Shown here piece by piece: positions 12,362-41,099 of a stretch of DNA of 42,473 bases. Both the position numbers and the translations under genes were made by a program. Source of the stretch: a virus (lineage: Duplodnaviria; Caudoviricetes); the IMG/VR virus record IMGVR_UViG_3300038492_000068, positions 1-42,473 of that record, one strand, 5' to 3'. Numbering within the stretch: the stretch's first letter is position 1; each line of letters begins with the position of its first letter. The notes below the pieces were generated by a model. It did no database searches and was not told the DNA's origin. It saw only the letters and a program-made list of their open reading frames with translations.

Positions 12362-13066
12362 ATGAAATCAGTAACGAGAATAGTGGCCGCTATCGCAGGA
12401 ATGGTAGCTATCACAACACTAGCTGTTGGACAGCTTGTCTTGCCTGATGGTTGGAAGAAATCCATACATAACAACAGCTACCAGATAGTAATGAAAGACG
12501 AGAAGAATGTGTGGCAGGGCAGTGGATTCGCTGTGGAAAAAGACCTCATAATGACGGCCTGTCATGTAGTTGACAAGAACAGAACTGTACAAATGGTTCG
12601 GCACTATTACGAACATCATCGTGTTTTCAAAGGAGAGGTTGTCTACTGTAATGAAGCCACAGATGTTGCCCTAATAAGGCTGAACAAGAAGGATGAGGAA
12701 GTTGAGCCTGCTGTTTTCGAGCAAGGACACCTATTCGACACTACCTATAACATGGGGCTAGGAGGCGACTGGGGGCCTGTTGTCCGATCAGGATTCGTTG
12801 GGGTATACCACCCCGGATTTGGTCTGGACCAGAGAATGAACCCAGGATTTCCGGCAGACTACGGTGACTCAGGTAGTGCCATATACAATGAAGCTGGACG
12901 GGTTATTGCAATGCTTACAGCAGTCCGGATGTATGGTATACCTATCGGACGGTGGGGATGGGAAGACATACCGAGCGCACTTCTGTCTGCCGCTGTAGGT
13001 CATAAGATGTTACGCTTAGCGGTAGACCATATCAACCTGCCACCAAGGGGGAACCCGCACCAATGA
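12362..13066 (+). CDS. Trypsin-like serine protease with N-terminal signal/anchor
   Basis: GSGF, TACHV (His), DVALI (Asp), GDSGS (Ser). Confidence 0.85.
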   Translation: MKSVTRIVAAIAGMVAITTLAVGQLVLPDGWKKSIHNNSYQIVMKDEKNVWQGSGFAVEKDLIMTACHVVDKNRTVQMVRHYYEHHRVFKGEVVYCNEATDVALIRLNKKDEEVEPAVFEQGHLFDTTYNMGLGGDWGPVVRSGFVGVYHPGFGLDQRMNPGFPADYGDSGSAIYNEAGRVIAMLTAVRMYGIPIGRWGWEDIPSALLSAAVGHKMLRLAVDHINLPPRGNPHQ

Positions 13067-13536
13067 GCCGCTTGATGTTTGATATAGAGGGGGATGAGTT
13101 GTTGCACACTGTCAAGAATATATGGTGCATCGTTACTCAGGACATCGACTCCGGAGAGGTAAGGCAGTACCCTCCGGAGCTAGTCGATGAAGGTATTGAA
13201 GCCTTGAAGAAAGCCGACATGCTGTCAGGACACAACATTATAGGCTACGACCTTCCTGCCATCTGGAAACTCAAGGGAGAGTGGGATGTTGTTCCACTTA
13301 TACTTGACACACTGGTCACATCCCGCTTCCTACTGCCCGAACGATTCGGGGGACACAGTCTGGAAGCATGGGGCAAACGCCTTGGTCACCGAAAGATTGA
13401 GTTTAGTGACTTCTCAAAGTACACTCCCGAAATGTTGGAGTATTGTACCGGGGACGTAGGATTAAACGTCAAGGTCTATAGGGAATTGGAGAAAGAGCAT
13501 GGAGCTGCCTTCGAAGGATATAAAGTCTACCATTAA
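13063..13536 (+). CDS. 3'-5' exonuclease subunit of split DNA polymerase A
   Basis: ExoI FDIE, ExoII GHNIIGYD, HSLEAWG, ExoIII YCTGD. Confidence 0.9.
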   Translation: MSRLMFDIEGDELLHTVKNIWCIVTQDIDSGEVRQYPPELVDEGIEALKKADMLSGHNIIGYDLPAIWKLKGEWDVVPLILDTLVTSRFLLPERFGGHSLEAWGKRLGHRKIEFSDFSKYTPEMLEYCTGDVGLNVKVYRELEKEHGAAFEGYKVYH

Positions 13537-14875
13537 CGCACTATATGTGGAGCATCATGTCCAAAGAATCATCACACAGCAAGAACAAGCCGGAGTTCAG
13601 TTTAACAAGACCCGAGCATTATTCTATGTACACTCGCTTAAGGAAAGACAGTCCGAACTCTATCGTAAAATTAGAACATATCTGTCGCTTGAACTGTCCG
13701 TACCTTATGATCGACCTGTATCACGACCGTATCTCAAATCAGGTAGCCTTAGCTCTCAGGTCACGCAGTGGTATAAAGAGGGTGACATACCAAGCATTGC
13801 AGGGCCCTTTACTAGAGTCGAATTTGTGGAGCCTGATCTCGGAAAGCGTCAGAAGTTGGTTGCCCAGCTCCTACGATTGGGCTGGAAGCCTACTGCTTAC
13901 ACTGAGAAAGGAAATCCTAAACTTACCGTCGAGGGTCAGCCGTGTCCAGCACTCGCCAAGCTCGACAATAAGGTTGGTCGTTGGATCGCAGACTGGTACA
14001 CCTACCGACACCGGCAGTCCCAGATCGAAGGATGGCTTAAGCTCGTCCGAGAAGACGGACGAATCTCCGCCCAAGCAATTACTATTGGAACACCAACCTT
14101 CAGATTCAGACATAAAGGAGTAGTCAATGTTCCGAAAGCTGCGAAGAAGGTTCTGTTCGGCCGTCAAATGCGGAGCCTATTTACTGTACGGCCTGGATAC
14201 AGACTCGTGGGCTATGATGCCTCGGGACTGGAACTCCGAATGCTTGCCGATGCCATCAACGACGAAGTATTCACACAATCAGTTATTAACGGAAGACAGG
14301 AGGATGGAACAGATGTTCACTCAAAGAACCAGAGGGATGCTAATCTTCCTACGAGAGATGACGCCAAAACTTTCATATATGCATTCATCTATGGAGCAGG
14401 AGATGCAAAACTTGGAAGGATTATTGGTGGAGGAAGGGTGGCAGGTAGCCGAATTAGACAGAGATTCCTGCAAGCAAATCCAAAGCTTGCTCAGTGCATT
14501 GCAGACACTAAAAGGGCAGCTCGCCGAGGTTACCTTGTCGGCATCGATGGCCGAAAGATCACTCTCAGAAAAGACCCGAGAACAGGTGAGGTCCAAACTC
14601 ACAAAGCCCTGAACACCCGGCTTCAATCGGCAGGCGCTATCGTCATGAAATGGGCGATGGTTATACTGGACGATTGGATTCACCAGTACCAGCTCGATGC
14701 CCCTAAGGTTATCGACATGCACGACGAGGGACAGAATGAAGTAATTGAAAAGGACACCAAACTATTTTCCTACCTAGCCCCGAACTCTATTCGAGTGGCG
14801 GGCGAAATACTAAACCTTAACGTACCACTAGCAGGAGAGGCTAAAACTGGCCTGAACTGGGCTCAAACCCACTAA
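13499..14875 (+). CDS. Family A DNA polymerase, polymerase domain
   Basis: Motif A YDASGLELR, motif B RDDAKTFIYAFIYGAG, ALNTRLQSAGA, motif C MHDE. Confidence 0.95.
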   Translation: MELPSKDIKSTINALYVEHHVQRIITQQEQAGVQFNKTRALFYVHSLKERQSELYRKIRTYLSLELSVPYDRPVSRPYLKSGSLSSQVTQWYKEGDIPSIAGPFTRVEFVEPDLGKRQKLVAQLLRLGWKPTAYTEKGNPKLTVEGQPCPALAKLDNKVGRWIADWYTYRHRQSQIEGWLKLVREDGRISAQAITIGTPTFRFRHKGVVNVPKAAKKVLFGRQMRSLFTVRPGYRLVGYDASGLELRMLADAINDEVFTQSVINGRQEDGTDVHSKNQRDANLPTRDDAKTFIYAFIYGAGDAKLGRIIGGGRVAGSRIRQRFLQANPKLAQCIADTKRAARRGYLVGIDGRKITLRKDPRTGEVQTHKALNTRLQSAGAIVMKWAMVILDDWIHQYQLDAPKVIDMHDEGQNEVIEKDTKLFSYLAPNSIRVAGEILNLNVPLAGEAKTGLNWAQTH

Positions 14876-38391: not shown

Positions 38392-38419
38392 AGAAAAGTG
38401 TGCAGTCGGAGGCCTGCAC
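38392..38419 (-). terminator. Possible terminator/processing hairpin after the tRNA array
   Basis: GTGCAG-N8-CTGCAC followed by ACTTTTCT on the minus strand. Confidence 0.35.
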
Positions 38420-38433
38420 TTGGCCTATATGTT

Positions 38434-38510
38434 TGGAGCCCCAGCTCGGAATCGCGCCGAGTTCCCCTGTTTACAAGACAGGGCATCATCTAATAAATGC
38501 TTCGTGAGGC
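38434..38510 (-). tRNA. tRNA-Thr(UGU)
   Basis: Anticodon arm CCUGU-CUUGUAA-ACAGG; encoded CCA; T-loop CGCGAUU; bulged acceptor stem. Confidence 0.8.
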
Positions 38511-38515
38511 ATATT

Positions 38516-38588
38516 TGGCAGAGCGTGAGGGATTCGAACCCCCTCAGTAAGCGTTTGGAGTGCCACCCGGACCGATCCTGTACGCCCT
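38516..38588 (-). tRNA. tRNA-Trp(CCA)
   Basis: A1-U72, G73, loop CUCCAAA, T-loop UUCGAAU; weak anticodon stem. Confidence 0.7.
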
Positions 38589-38594
38589 ATAATT

Positions 38595-38682
38595 TGGAGG
38601 AAGGCAAGAGAGTCGAACTCTTACAGCCCGTCAGGGCCATCACGGGGTTCAAGCCCGATAAGCACGCCACATGCGGCCTTCC
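38595..38682 (-). tRNA. tRNA-Ser(UGA)
   Basis: GGAAGGC acceptor, long variable arm, loop CUUGAAC, CCA. Confidence 0.85.
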
Positions 38683-38683
38683 T

Positions 38684-38758
38684 TGGTGGAGCCAGATGGT
38701 ATCGCGCCATCCTCTTCAGTGTTTCAAACTGACGCTAATCTATCTCAGCTACAGCTCC
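38684..38758 (-). tRNA. tRNA-Phe(GAA)
   Basis: UCAGU-UUGAAAC-ACUGA; A73; T-loop CGCGAUA. Confidence 0.85.
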
Positions 38759-38759
38759 T

Positions 38760-38832
38760 TGGTACTCCGTCACGGTTACGCTCCGCGCACCCCTTCCTTG
38801 TAAGAGATGGGTCTGGACCTAGCAGTCGGAGT
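38760..38832 (-). tRNA. tRNA-Val(UAC)
   Basis: Loop CUUACAA, A73, T-loop AGCGUAA; irregular D arm. Confidence 0.7.
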
Positions 38833-38836
38833 AAAT

Positions 38837-38911
38837 TGGTTGCCACGGTTGGATTTGCACCAACGTCCGTCGGTTATCAGCCGACTGCTACGCTAACTCA
38901 GCTACGCGGCA
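38837..38911 (-). tRNA. tRNA-Ile(GAU)
   Basis: GUCGG-CUGAUAA-CCGAC; A73; T-loop UGCAAAU. Confidence 0.85.
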
Positions 38912-38912
38912 G

Positions 38913-38984
38913 TGGTAGCGGGTACCGGTAACGCTCCGGTCTATCTGAGGTTATGGGCCTCTGACGGTCTCTTGACCACCCGCA
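38913..38984 (-). tRNA. tRNA-Met(CAU), initiator-like
   Basis: Loop CCCAUAA; U1xU72 mismatch; GCGGG acceptor; A73; T-loop AGCGUUA. Confidence 0.7.
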
Positions 38985-38989
38985 TCAAT

Positions 38990-39073
38990 TGGAACACGAG
39001 ACGGGATTCGAACCCGCGAACCTTTCGGGCTGGGGTGAAGGCCCAGCTTCTTTAGCCACTTGAATACTCGTGT
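38990..39073 (-). tRNA. tRNA-Glu(UUC) with enlarged variable region
   Basis: CUGGG-CCUUCAC-CCCAG; variable region CCGAAAGG hairpin; 84 nt. Confidence 0.7.
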
Positions 39074-39077
39074 ATGT

Positions 39078-39153
39078 TGGAGCGAGCGGAGGGAATCGAA
39101 CCCTGCCCAGCATGGCTTGGAAGGCCAGCGCTACGACCCGCGTAGACGCCCGC
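39078..39153 (-). tRNA. tRNA-Gly(UCC)
   Basis: GCGGGCG acceptor, U73, loop CUUCCAA. Confidence 0.85.
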
Positions 39154-39158
39154 ATGTT

Positions 39159-39235
39159 TGGCAGCTCCGACGGGAATCGAACCCGCCTCCTTCCTCCTAG
39201 ACAGGGAGGTGTACTCGCCAGAATACTACGAAGCT
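39159..39235 (-). tRNA. tRNA-Asp(GUC)
   Basis: CCUCC-CUGUCUA-GGAGG; G73. Confidence 0.85.
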
Positions 39236-39241
39236 ATTGTT

Positions 39242-39317
39242 TGGCGAGAGCGCAGGACTTCCACCTGTCTATGATCCTTGTCGGGTAATAACCCTTACGG
39301 CTTAGCATTGTACTCTC
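39242..39317 (-). ncRNA. Degenerate tRNA-like element, anticodon unclear
   Basis: GAGAGU/GCUCUC acceptor, T-arm CAGG-UGGAAGU-CCUG, CCA end, 76 nt; no clean anticodon stem. Confidence 0.5.
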
Positions 39318-39327
39318 TATTGTTTTT

Positions 39328-39405
39328 TGGCTCCCCGTCGTGGACTCGAACCACGCTCTTTCTTGATTAACAGTCAAGCGCCATCTCCCGGACGACTCAC
39401 GAGGA
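39328..39405 (-). tRNA. tRNA-Asn(GUU)
   Basis: UCCUCGU acceptor, G73, CUUGA-CUGUUAA-UCAAG. Confidence 0.88.
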
Positions 39406-39413
39406 ATAATAAT

Positions 39414-39487
39414 TGGAGGTCTCGGTCGGTGCGAGCCGACATCCTCTCGCTTTGCAGGCGAGCGCATATCCTTTCTGCCACGAGACC
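39414..39487 (-). tRNA. tRNA-Cys(GCA)
   Basis: U73; CUCGC-CUGCAAA-GCGAG; 6-nt T-loop CUCGCA. Confidence 0.85.
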
Positions 39488-39488
39488 T

Positions 39489-39575
39489 TGGAGGAGGGCA
39501 CTGGATTCGAACCAGAAGCGTTGCCGCTCGGTACGCTTAGCAGGCGACCCCCGTCACCATCAGGGGTTACCCTCC
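39489..39575 (-). tRNA. tRNA-Ser(GCU)
   Basis: GGAGGGU acceptor, long variable arm, loop CUGCUAA. Confidence 0.85.
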
Positions 39576-39651
39576 AACTTACCTTTTTATGGATCCAGTC
39601 CACCCGATGATCCTCGGGGCGTCGTTTCAGCAGCCGCGCATTCATGAATTT

Positions 39652-39737
39652 TGGTGTAGAGGGCTGGATTTGAACCAACACGGACTAGCCGACCTGTGGG
39701 TTACAACCACGTACCCTACCGAATGGGTGTCCTCTAC
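39652..39737 (-). tRNA. tRNA-Tyr(GUA)
   Basis: Loop UUGUAAC, long variable arm, A73. Confidence 0.85.
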
Positions 39738-39742
39738 TAATT

Positions 39743-39817
39743 TGGTCAGAACGGTAGGACTCGAACCTACAGTATGTGTGTCCAAGACACATGGTTTACC
39801 TGTTAACCGACGCTCTG
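39743..39817 (-). tRNA. tRNA-Pro(UGG)
   Basis: C1-G72, A73, UGUGU-CUUGGAC-ACACA. Confidence 0.85.
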
Positions 39818-39823
39818 ATTGTT

Positions 39824-39898
39824 TGGAAGTCCCGACTGGATTTGCACCAGTAGCGCATGGGTTCAAAGCCCAGCATGTTGCTGTTACACCACGAGACA
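39824..39898 (-). tRNA. tRNA-Gln(UUG)
   Basis: UGGG-CUUUGAA-CCCA; U1xU72; T-loop UGCAAAU. Confidence 0.8.
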
Positions 39899-39904
39899 AT
39901 TATT

Positions 39905-39974
39905 TGGTACCCTAGGCAGGATTCGAACCTACCACCGTCGGCTTAGAAGACCTTGGCCGTCCATCGGCTAGGGT
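39905..39974 (-). tRNA. tRNA-Arg(UCU), short D arm
   Basis: Perfect 7-bp acceptor ACCCUAG/CUAGGGU; loop CUUCUAA; 70 nt. Confidence 0.75.
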
Positions 39975-39975
39975 A

Positions 39976-40016
39976 TGGCGCACCGGTATTGGGTGACCCC
40001 CGGTACAAGGGGCGCG
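39976..40016 (-). ncRNA. 41-nt CCA-ended mini tRNA-like RNA
   Basis: CGCGCCCCUUGUACCGGGGGUCACCCAAUACCGGUGCGCCA fills the slot between two tRNAs; termini can pair. Confidence 0.45.
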
Positions 40017-40017
40017 T

Positions 40018-40090
40018 TGGTGGAGCTACACGGAATCAAACCGTGCCCTCGATCTTGCAAGGATCATGGTGCTACTCATAGACTAGCCCC
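40018..40090 (-). tRNA. tRNA-Ala(UGC)
   Basis: GGGGCUA acceptor with G3-U70, A73, loop CUUGCAA. Confidence 0.88.
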
Positions 40091-40095
40091 TTGAT

Positions 40096-40171
40096 TGGTT
40101 GGAGTGGAGGGACTCTAACCCCCATCTGTCCGGGTAAGAACCGGAAGTAATAACAGTTATACGACACTCCA
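40096..40171 (-). tRNA. tRNA-Lys(CUU)
   Basis: UCCGG-UUCUUAC-CCGGA; A73; T-loop UUAGAGU. Confidence 0.85.
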
Positions 40172-40172
40172 T

Positions 40173-40249
40173 TGGTCGGCCCCGAGGGATTCGAACCCCC
40201 ATCTGCTCGGGTAAAAGCCGAGGGTAATGCGCAATTATACGAGAGACCG
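40173..40249 (-). tRNA. tRNA-Lys(UUU)
   Basis: CUCGG-CUUUUAC-CCGAG; A73; canonical T-loop. Confidence 0.85.
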
Positions 40250-40255
40250 TTGAAT

Positions 40256-40327
40256 TGGACCCCTAGGTAGGATTCGAACCTACAACCCTCGGATTCGTAG
40301 TCCAAGCTCCGTCCATCCGGCTAGGAG
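40256..40327 (-). tRNA. tRNA-Arg(ACG)
   Basis: Loop CUACGAA; canonical T arm; short D arm. Confidence 0.8.
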
Positions 40328-40335
40328 TTGTGCTA

Positions 40336-40384
40336 GGCGGGGAGAGGCCTTCAGCCTCCCATCCCTCTTGCCAGAGGGCCCGCC
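40336..40384 (-). ncRNA. Three-way-junction structured element without CCA
   Basis: GGCGGG/CCCGCC closes hairpins CCCUCU-GGCA-AGAGGG and GGGAGGC-UGAAG-GCCUCUC. Confidence 0.55.
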
Positions 40385-40390
40385 GCGCTT

Positions 40391-40467
40391 TGGTACCCAG
40401 TGCAGGAGTCGAACCTGCAAAATTCTGTTTCTAAGACAGACACGTATGCCAATTCCGTCAACTGGGC
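40391..40467 (-). tRNA. tRNA-Leu(UAG), short variable loop
   Basis: UCUGU-CUUAGAA-ACAGA; A73; 77 nt. Confidence 0.85.
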
Positions 40468-40472
40468 ATTGT

Positions 40473-40543
40473 TGGGGTGAGGCGGAGATTCGAACTCCTC
40501 AGCGTGGGTCACAACCGCGCTTGCTACCCTGAGCTACCTCAAC
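40473..40543 (-). tRNA. tRNA-His(GUG)
   Basis: G-1:C73; CGCGG-UUGUGAC-CCACG; 5' end overlaps the methyltransferase stop codon. Confidence 0.75.
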
Positions 40544-41099
40544 TCGTTGCCACCTTGAAAGTGGCTACCATACCTTTCTTCTCCCAGTCCTCAATCACGT
40601 AGTGCTTTCTGAGGACAGACAGCCACCATTCGGCAGGCTGCACTGTAAGATGTAAAGGCTCATCGGTAAACTTTCCGTTATCTTTATGAAGGAAGATTCG
40701 GTAGTAAATTTTATCACAGTGATTACGCACTCTGCGGAAGACAGCATTGACCTTATTCTCCGGTATATGCTCCATCACGTCACAGCAGAATCCGTAGTCA
40801 TAATGCTCGGGAAGGTCTAGCTCCCAGAGGCACTGCTGGTAGAACGGGAGCTTGACACTCTCATCCCTGCAATTATATGCGTGGTCAACCATGTGGACGT
40901 GTGCGTGTCCTGCTTCGGAGATGGCTCGGGCTGCCTGCCCTGTGCCACACCCCAAATCCACCACGGAACCTTGTCCTCCAGTCCACTCTAGGAAGTCGGG
41001 GACACTGAGTCTGCCCGGACTGATTCGGCTGTAGTCCGGATTGTCCCACACCTTCTCGTATTTTTCTCGTTCTACTTGTTCAAGTGAGTCTGAGGACAT
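40539..41099 (-). CDS. Class I SAM-dependent methyltransferase
   Basis: Motif I VVDLGCGTG; FCCDVMEHIP; HLTVQPAEWW. Confidence 0.85.
   Translation of the reverse strand: MSSDSLEQVEREKYEKVWDNPDYSRISPGRLSVPDFLEWTGGQGSVVDLGCGTGQAARAISEAGHAHVHMVDHAYNCRDESVKLPFYQQCLWELDLPEHYDYGFCCDVMEHIPENKVNAVFRRVRNHCDKIYYRIFLHKDNGKFTDEPLHLTVQPAEWWLSVLRKHYVIEDWEKKGMVATFKVATS

Follow-up and report, generated by a model that had tools for sequence, protein, structure and literature searches.

Matched elbow changes in tRNA genes of a podovirus-type phage and their recurrence among phage tRNAs

The elbow of a tRNA joins the D loop to the T loop through contacts between positions 18 and 55 and positions 19 and 56, and the pair of G18 with pseudouridine 55 (Psi55) is taught as universal. 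Here we analyze an array of tRNA genes in the virus record IMGVR_UViG_3300038492_000068 (Duplodnaviria; Caudoviricetes); the window under study is the whole record of 42,473 bases. Matched changes at these contacts are present in eight of its 23 tRNA genes, of which six carry A18/G55, one (Lys(CUU)) carries U19/A56 and one (Ala) carries A19/U56.

In overall form the tRNAs of the window resemble canonical elongator tRNAs (RF00005) and those in the clusters of phage T5 and Aeromonas phage Akh-2, with which they share the cloverleaf, a 7-bp acceptor stem, a 7-nt T loop, G53-C61, a purine at position 57 and an encoded CCA. Homologous Phe, Thr and Gly families are present in the T5 and Akh-2 clusters, and T5 tRNA-Ile is already A19/U56. 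By contrast to the six A18/G55 genes of the window, G55 occurs in 0 of the 23 T5 genes read and in 0 of the 27 Akh-2 genes parsed. The available part of a study of riboswitch T loops (10.1101/2022.12.26.521914) gives the consensus YGNRA plus an inserted A, with C-A tolerated for the closing U-A, and contrasts it with the U at position 2 of tRNA T loops. Four of the six G55 genes, namely Ile and Gln (U-G-C-A-A) and Thr and Phe (C-G-C-G-A), fit YGNRA and have an A at position 18, as in the T-loop/receptor contacts of flavin mononucleotide (FMN) and class II cobalamin riboswitches. Unlike in riboswitches, the partner here would be a tRNA D loop, a pairing deduced from sequence, and Val and Met have A54-U58.

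Two precedents are in print. Desulfitobacterium hafniense tRNA-Pyl has G55 and A56, according to the portion of PMC1851642 consulted, and a non-proteogenic staphylococcal tRNA-Gly likewise lacks G18-G19 and U55. The accessible text of the latter report (PMC13443448) concerns one isotype and describes no matched A18/G55, whereas the window has six such isotypes in a full set; its own Gly gene is canonical at the elbow, and no partner transferase was found among its 50 open reading frames (ORFs). U19 in a Staphylococcus aureus tRNA-Gly is mentioned in an excerpt of PMC5622331. Long bacterial tRNA arrays (L-arrays; the Anabaena trn operon, PMC8421152) also form a dense spare set that covers most amino acids, whereas the window array is phage-borne; the main text of PMC8421152 does not contain the terms T-loop, D-loop, G18, U55 or G55. 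Reviews, in those main-text parts that were accessible, present U55 as conserved and do not use the term G55. In the open literature, subscription papers and supplements lying outside the search, neither natural A18/G55 covariation nor the class of phage tRNAs with a short D arm reported below was found to be described. The A18/G55 phage tRNAs are a real new variant of tRNA architecture.

Matched changes at 18/55 and 19/56 in the window

Genes were numbered with a parser whose score depends on the stems alone and ignores the loop sequence; it gave 0 matches in three shuffles of the window and was chosen because relaxed ARAGORN gave mostly noise on the loci of relatives. The ordinary A14-G15 was kept out of the 18-19 reading by dropping the first two D-loop positions. 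The array, the eight changed genes and a close paralogue of one of them are as follows.

38434..40543, minus strand: tRNA array of 23 CCA-ended tRNA genes and four odd tRNA-like elements (ARAGORN, parser, fold, Rfam, PHROGs)
38434..38510, minus strand: tRNA-Thr(UGU), A18/G55 at 38491/38455, C54-A58
38684..38758, minus strand: tRNA-Phe(GAA), A18/G55 at 38741/38705, C54-A58
38760..38832, minus strand: tRNA-Val(UAC), short D arm, A18/G55 at 38820/38781, A54-U58, numbered from a homologue in phage G001
38837..38911, minus strand: tRNA-Ile(GAU), A18/G55 at 38894/38858
38913..38984, minus strand: tRNA-Met(CAU), short D arm, A18/G55 at 38972/38934, A54-U58, 1-72 unpaired
39824..39898, minus strand: tRNA-Gln(UUG), A18/G55 at 39882/39845
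40018..40090, minus strand: tRNA-Ala(UGC), short D arm, A19/U56 at 40076/40038, G3-U70 kept
40096..40171, minus strand: tRNA-Lys(CUU), U19/A56 at 40153/40116
40173..40249, minus strand: tRNA-Lys(UUU), U55C56, D loop without GG, close paralogue of Lys(CUU)

The array covers all 20 amino acids, sits upstream of the terminase large subunit gene and extends to 40543, beyond the end at 40171 given in an earlier note on this DNA. The T loops quoted in that note were all found on the minus strand. In Thr, Phe, Ile and Gln the parser reads AG at positions 18-19, apart from A14-G15, and in Lys(CUU) it reads GU there, which answers the concern that these dinucleotides might lie elsewhere in the D loop. 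In Met the AG, and in Ala the GA, lies inside a 4-nt D-hairpin loop. The Val D loop contains both AG and GG and is ambiguous alone; it was read as A18G19 because its homologue in G001 has a fully compensated 3-bp D stem, with GA in the same register and U55U56. The six G55 genes with AG at 18-19 and the U19-A56 and A19-U56 contacts of Lys(CUU) and Ala, as originally proposed, are thereby confirmed.

By T loop, the 23 genes comprise six with G55, two changed at 56 and 15 with U55C56. That genes of the last kind mostly keep GG is borne out in 14 of the 15 and fails in Lys(UUU), an exception overlooked earlier. In all eight changed genes the cloverleaf (acceptor, anticodon and T arms) and the 3' CCA are present by parser or fold. 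Four of the six G55 genes are also altered at position 54, with C54-A58 in Thr and Phe and A54-U58 in Val and Met; U54-A58 is retained in Ile, Gln, Lys and Ala. Compared with a baseline of 279 phage tRNAs unselected on the elbow (25 non-U55C56, 10 with G55), the window is enriched both in changed genes (8/23, p = 6e-4) and in G55 (6/23, p = 1.3e-4). Codon counts, compared without statistics, did not visibly relate the changed genes to codon use. Contigs from four DNA runs (one study, two of the runs possibly being the source) show no alternative letter at the covered elbow sites, and assembly error was rejected on this ground.

Only 17 of the 23 genes are found by default ARAGORN and 22 by relaxed ARAGORN, Met being supplied by parser and fold; the Rfam gathering threshold is passed by 10 of the 23 and, among the changed genes, by Ile, Gln, Phe and Lys(CUU) only. 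The Met gene, missed by both tools, folds with z = -3.5, and genes of its class are present in L473 and L443. Phage tRNA sets are undercounted or called pseudogenes because default tools miss such genes.

Covariation in phage and cellular tRNAs

Viral contigs were gathered by T-arm patterns only and all their CCA-ended tRNAs were parsed, those matched by a pattern being termed seeds. The set comprised at least 1,741 unique tRNAs from at least 485 loci; 1,513 tRNAs with a clear D arm were analyzed and 228 were set aside. Among the matches listed, non-seed tRNAs with U55C56 have GG in 1084 of 1097 sequences and those with G55C56 have AG in 113 of 116. The corresponding counts are 25/28 for GA with U55U56, 7/10 for GU with U55A56 and 9/10 for GC with U55G56, and for changes at both contacts 2/2 for AC with G55G56 and 0/1 for AA with G55U56. 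In the seed classes the matched D-loop pair is present in 126/126, 63/68 and 40/43, and G55C56 seeds and non-seeds together have AG in 239/242, again among the matches listed. A scan of 120 loci for G55G56 yielded four parseable tRNAs, all four with AC. The 18/55 and 19/56 contacts vary independently (odds ratio 1.1, p = 1).

G55 tRNAs show no loss of stem integrity relative to canonical ones. In 47 of the 117 G55 tRNAs having a neighbor at least 75% identical, the nearest neighbor is not G55. U54-A58 is found in 53 of 129 G55 tRNAs versus 1194 of 1330 canonical ones, and G-G at 54-58 in 29 versus 10, in a count that omits seed loops and is thus biased for the U-A and A-U classes. The A54-U58 loop type of Val and Met recurs in 94 seed tRNAs among the matches listed. 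Of 96 array loci, not deduplicated, 67 have less than 10% G55 and one has more than 90%.

Homologues were compared in single families. A scan for the Phe family by its D arm, blind to position 18 and the T loop, returned 24 unique genes at 45 loci: 19 are G18/U55, five are A18/G55 (one of them in the window phage) and none is mixed. On a tree of this family with Akh-2 added and columns 18 and 55 removed, five state changes are needed, 0% of bootstrap trees give one and the starred branches force at least two; the window gene clusters with that of Akh-2, which is canonical (90/81, unstarred). The D-stem family of the Thr gene carries G18/U55 in T5 and L601.

The related phage G001 (the record of L224; 42,656 bases) has a terminase 45-53% identical to that of the window and its array in the same position. 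Its G55 genes are Tyr, Pro, Leu(UAG), Lys(UUU) and Met, and its U56 genes are Asp, Cys, Thr, Val and Gly. Asn has A56, Arg(UCU) has C55, and the canonical state is seen in Phe, Ile, Lys(CUU) and Ala; Met, Lys(UUU) and both Ser genes were read by eye. The elbow state differs at 15 of the 21 anticodons common to the two phages, among which Phe, Asp, Asn and Val are clear homologues and other same-anticodon pairs need not be orthologous. The description of the array as systematically rewired was therefore overstated, since only 8/23 genes are changed and the isotypes changed in the related phage hardly overlap with those changed here. The partners did not drift independently in homologues, as they might have done; they change together.

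Relatives collected by terminase (80 loci) and by portal (80 loci) included no comparable array except in L001, a copy of the window phage; among them, L025 has two tRNAs and L028 one. Apart from the window phage itself, a Val-specific scan matched one sequence only, which is not a tRNA. Searches by blastn revealed no close A18/G55 homologue in a cultured phage, and the two of their matches that were examined, KIT05 and Akh-2, are canonical.

In cellular genomes the same T-arm pattern matched 27 unique tRNAs at 123 loci, 23 with AG, two with GG and two with neither; these include lone archaeal Cys genes, lone Patescibacteria genes and also arrays. In five such genomes the G55 gene is the only Cys match in a search that would miss intron-bearing genes; one other match was checked and is Phe, and four were not singly checked. 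Among 121 incomplete genomes of the class of one of them (G004), 21 have one match each to a Cys pattern that presumes one D-arm type, 15 being A18/G55, six G18/U55 and none mixed. The earlier wording "folded but non-host-like" thus stands for folding and falls for strict non-host-likeness, since A18/G55 is present in lone, apparently housekeeping cellular tRNAs.

As a separate observation, the sole match to tRNA-Cys is of the A18/G55 type in 15 genomes of marine archaea and in individual genomes of Thorarchaeota and Hodarchaeota (L820, from G004, L819, L823 and L827). Swaps at 19-56 are concentrated in tRNA-Arg (16/105 non-seed Arg; 27/49 U19/A56 seeds), with 7/46 in Cys, among the matches listed, which suggests an isotype-specific cause. 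Phage tRNAs with stop-codon anticodons (UCA, CUA) occur in L096, L328, L329, L840 and L948, some with swapped elbows. For two T5 genes, tRNA-Ile(GAU) (L950:2211-2287), which is A19/U56 and offers a laboratory example of the swap, and tRNA-Gly, which has a short D arm like that of the window, annotation notes in the T5 record state conversion to amber suppressors.

Possible causes of the changed elbows

The two positions of a contact change in concert, the 18/55 and 19/56 contacts vary independently, and single gene families have switched state repeatedly. We consider it likely, with a probability of roughly 0.6, that the matched changes of the eight genes keep the elbow folded and the tRNAs usable in translation, and that they arose gene by gene as compensatory switches rather than by an array-wide redesign. 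Indirect support for usability comes from other organisms, namely from the A18/G55 tRNA-Cys genes that are the only Cys match of archaeal genomes, from T5 tRNA-Ile(GAU) and tRNA-Gly, and from D. hafniense tRNA-Pyl with its G55 and A56. The numbering and the homologues support the earlier proposal that compensatory covariation reflects selection for a folded elbow, as far as sequence comparison can indicate. A18 would intercalate between 57 and 58 and pair with G55 as in riboswitch T loops. According to the consulted parts of PMC4810234 and PMC5309774, the 19-56 face is a stacking platform for the L1 stalk, RNase P and T-boxes, and a swapped Watson-Crick pair should therefore serve; any such pair would still present a flat face to the L1 stalk and RNase P. 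A18/G55 tRNAs cannot receive Psi55 or 2'-O-methylguanosine 18 (Gm18), for which U55 and G18 are the sites (PMC7912444, consulted in part), because these bases are absent, and four of the genes cannot receive 5-methyluridine 54 (m5U54) because they have C54 or A54. Selection may hold the shape of the elbow and not its letters where phage tRNAs are spare, have long been resident and carry an encoded CCA. The elbow would then turn over like a stem pair, with letter-reading constraints relaxed.

Several observations weigh against this gene-by-gene account. In the window, Lys(UUU) violates the association of GG with U55C56, 7-66 is unpaired in Thr and Val, and Val and Met, with A54-U58, lie outside YGNRA. 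Four genes among the six with G55, Met-Ile-Val-Phe, form an uninterrupted run (p = 0.03), which may represent a block transfer. The Phe tree rests on 70 columns only, the covariation counts are of sequences and not of independent events, and the intactness of stems is partly built in because the parser filters on stem quality. Arrays that are almost wholly G55 (12/13 parsed genes in L744, 7/7 in L153) are hard to obtain by per-gene drift and point to an array-wide force in those lineages. Across 67 arrays, elbow-swap frequency does not follow divergence at other invariant sites (rho 0.11, p = 0.39); general degeneration was dropped as a cause, since no array-level correlation was seen.

A possible but clearly less probable explanation is counter-defense, in which anti-tRNA nucleases or toxins, or a phage-encoded enzyme that degrades host tRNA, read loop letters and each phage changes the isotypes attacked in its host. 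The high turnover between the related phages (15/21 anticodons), the enrichment of swaps over the baseline, the repeated double switches through rarely seen intermediates and the near-complete G55 arrays of other phages would all fit, as would hydrogen bonding of proteins to elbow bases (PMC4810234) and documented defense evasion by phage tRNAs (PMC12445682), in the excerpts at hand. Yet a general elbow reader would not be escaped by an array in which 15/23 genes keep U55C56, A18/G55 also occurs in lone cellular tRNAs, and P2-OLD resistance, the single mapped case considered, lies in the anticodon arm, a T-arm swap having changed little (PMC12445682, in part). Our literature search found no defense nuclease that reads the elbow, and the part of PMC13273310 that was available adds nothing further on the elbow. 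Evasion of host factors as the purpose, as first suggested, is not supported and is weakened by the mosaic pattern. Tentatively, and with slightly less weight still, the elbow might be an arms-race surface. Each phage tRNA would then pass through at least six elbow states of equivalent shape, in which G18/U55 or A18/G55 is combined with a Watson-Crick 19-56 pair of any kind, and through normal and short, tRNA-Pyl-like D arms, and would so escape host or phage enzymes that read the loop letters while remaining ribosome-compatible.

It seems rather unlikely that A18/G55 is favored as a stable elbow that needs no TruB, TrmA or TrmH, such that tRNAs made fast late in infection work unmodified. The loss of the modification sites can be read from the sequence itself, the 54-58 pair varies much more in G55 tRNAs, riboswitch T loops with this contact work unmodified (10.1101/2022.12.26.521914) and the S. 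aureus tRNA-Gly species without U55 are hypomodified (PMC13443448), the last two points being taken from parts of these sources. This would leave the 19-56 swaps unexplained, as they are independent of 18/55, and would give no reason why most genes stay canonical or why relatives differ; the release at 54-58 can also be a consequence and not a cause. We think it very improbable that the changed genes are decaying pseudogenes, decoys or non-ribosomal aminoacyl donors resembling the staphylococcal cell-wall tRNA-Gly, which lacks G18-G19 and U55 and is excluded from translation (PMC13443448, in the available text). Four array elements lack a full cloverleaf, some changed genes have stem mismatches, and U8, A14 or A21 is lost more often; decay, however, would not give two-sided covariation, each changed gene except Lys(CUU) has no second gene for its amino acid in an array that serves all 20, and no aminoacyl-tRNA transferase was found among the 50 ORFs. 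Identity elements of Escherichia coli tRNAs, such as G3-U70 in Ala and A73 with C4-G69 in Ile, are also kept.

Natural two-sided covariation means that tRNA has a second, likely working elbow of riboswitch type that has been reached repeatedly. In vivo selections of D and T loops, reportedly made in the Steinberg laboratory, may have yielded functional engineered equivalents of these pairs. Natural genes that are almost isogenic (Phe, Asp, Asn and Val between the window and G001; Phe, Thr and Gly with T5 and Akh-2) allow tests of why cells retain G18/U55 and of what they need TruB, TrmA and TrmH for. Modification-free elbows may also help the design of engineered tRNAs.

Short D arms, odd elements and the phage

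The D arm is short in seven genes of the window (Met, Val, Ala, Gly, Trp and two Arg), its hairpin beginning 0-3 nt past the acceptor stem. Four of them are canonical at the elbow.

38516..38588, minus strand: tRNA-Trp(CCA), irregular anticodon stem common to L597
39078..39153, minus strand: tRNA-Gly(UCC), resembles T5 tRNA-Gly(UCC)
39905..39974, minus strand: tRNA-Arg(UCU), short D arm assigned by eye, found by relaxed ARAGORN
40256..40327, minus strand: tRNA-Arg(ACG)

In the fetched arrays the D region is at most 17 nt in 52 of 1,484 parsed genes, and the elbow rule holds in 47 of these 52. Positions 26 and 44 are paired in 29/34 short-D phage tRNAs versus 326/1635 normal ones. The class is recurrent, with mainly Met, Ala, Gly, Arg, Gln and Trp members, and its loci include L098, L326, L394, L473, L507 and L577; a short-D Met gene of Akh-2 (L948:2022-2094) is annotated as a pseudogene. 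According to the parts of PMC7609411 and PMC1851642 that we used, tRNA-Pyl and mitochondrial tRNA-Ser(UCN) resemble these tRNAs in the short connector, the small D loop and the 6-bp anticodon stem. The traits typical of tRNA-Pyl (0-1 nt connector, small D loop, paired 26-44) are seen in the class as a whole and are clear in Met, Val and Arg(ACG) of the window, not in Ala. The canonical elbow contact is absent from tRNA-Pyl (PMC1851642, in part), whereas the 18/55 and 19/56 rule is kept in the short-D phage tRNAs. Moreover, tRNA-Pyl has a CUA anticodon and the synthetase PylRS, whereas the window genes have standard anticodons; neither PylRS nor another synthetase nor an aminoacyl-tRNA transferase is among the 50 ORFs.

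The four odd elements are spaced like tRNA genes, and G001 has similar pieces.

39242..39317, minus strand: CCA-ended tRNA-like element with an acceptor-like stem, a G55G56 T loop and no recognizable anticodon arm
about 39590-39640: CCA-ended element of unclear form
39976-40015: 40-nt CCA-ended piece
40331-40384: stable two-hairpin Y shape, z = -2.7

The T5 record likewise notes stable tRNA-like RNAs of unassigned function within its array. L864 was not accepted as a homologue of the 39242-39317 element, as its 23-nt match lies in apparent coding sequence.

Four further tRNA genes are atypical in other respects, and a candidate terminator closes the array.

39414-39487: tRNA-Cys, 6-nt T loop
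40391-40467: tRNA-Leu(UAG), short variable arm
38990-39073: tRNA-Glu, long variable arm
40473-40543: tRNA-His, irregular acceptor end
38400..38419, minus strand: terminator-like hairpin directly after the last tRNA gene, by consensus match only

The gene content of the window is that of a podovirus-type phage and includes a T7-like primase-helicase, DNA polymerase, terminase, portal, major head protein and an amidoligase/ATP-grasp cluster (PHROGs). No cultured phage is close, the best terminase match having 46% identity over half its length; the phage may resemble the Zobellviridae. The four DNA runs that contain it are labeled aquatic metagenome, and no RNA run containing it is listed. Directly upstream of the array, a gene for an S-adenosylmethionine-dependent methyltransferase (40539-41099) has a weak PHROG match labeled tRNA methyltransferase (E 5e-9). 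The DNA polymerase is encoded by two overlapping ORFs (13063-14875), one for the exonuclease part and one for the polymerase part, consistent with a split gene or a frameshift. In runs X1 and X2, a second contig carries a variant of the tRNA-Glu with the long variable arm, in which an anticodon-stem pair is compensated, and the depth steps there (38993-39075); this contig possibly belongs to a sister phage whose array differs in its upstream half.

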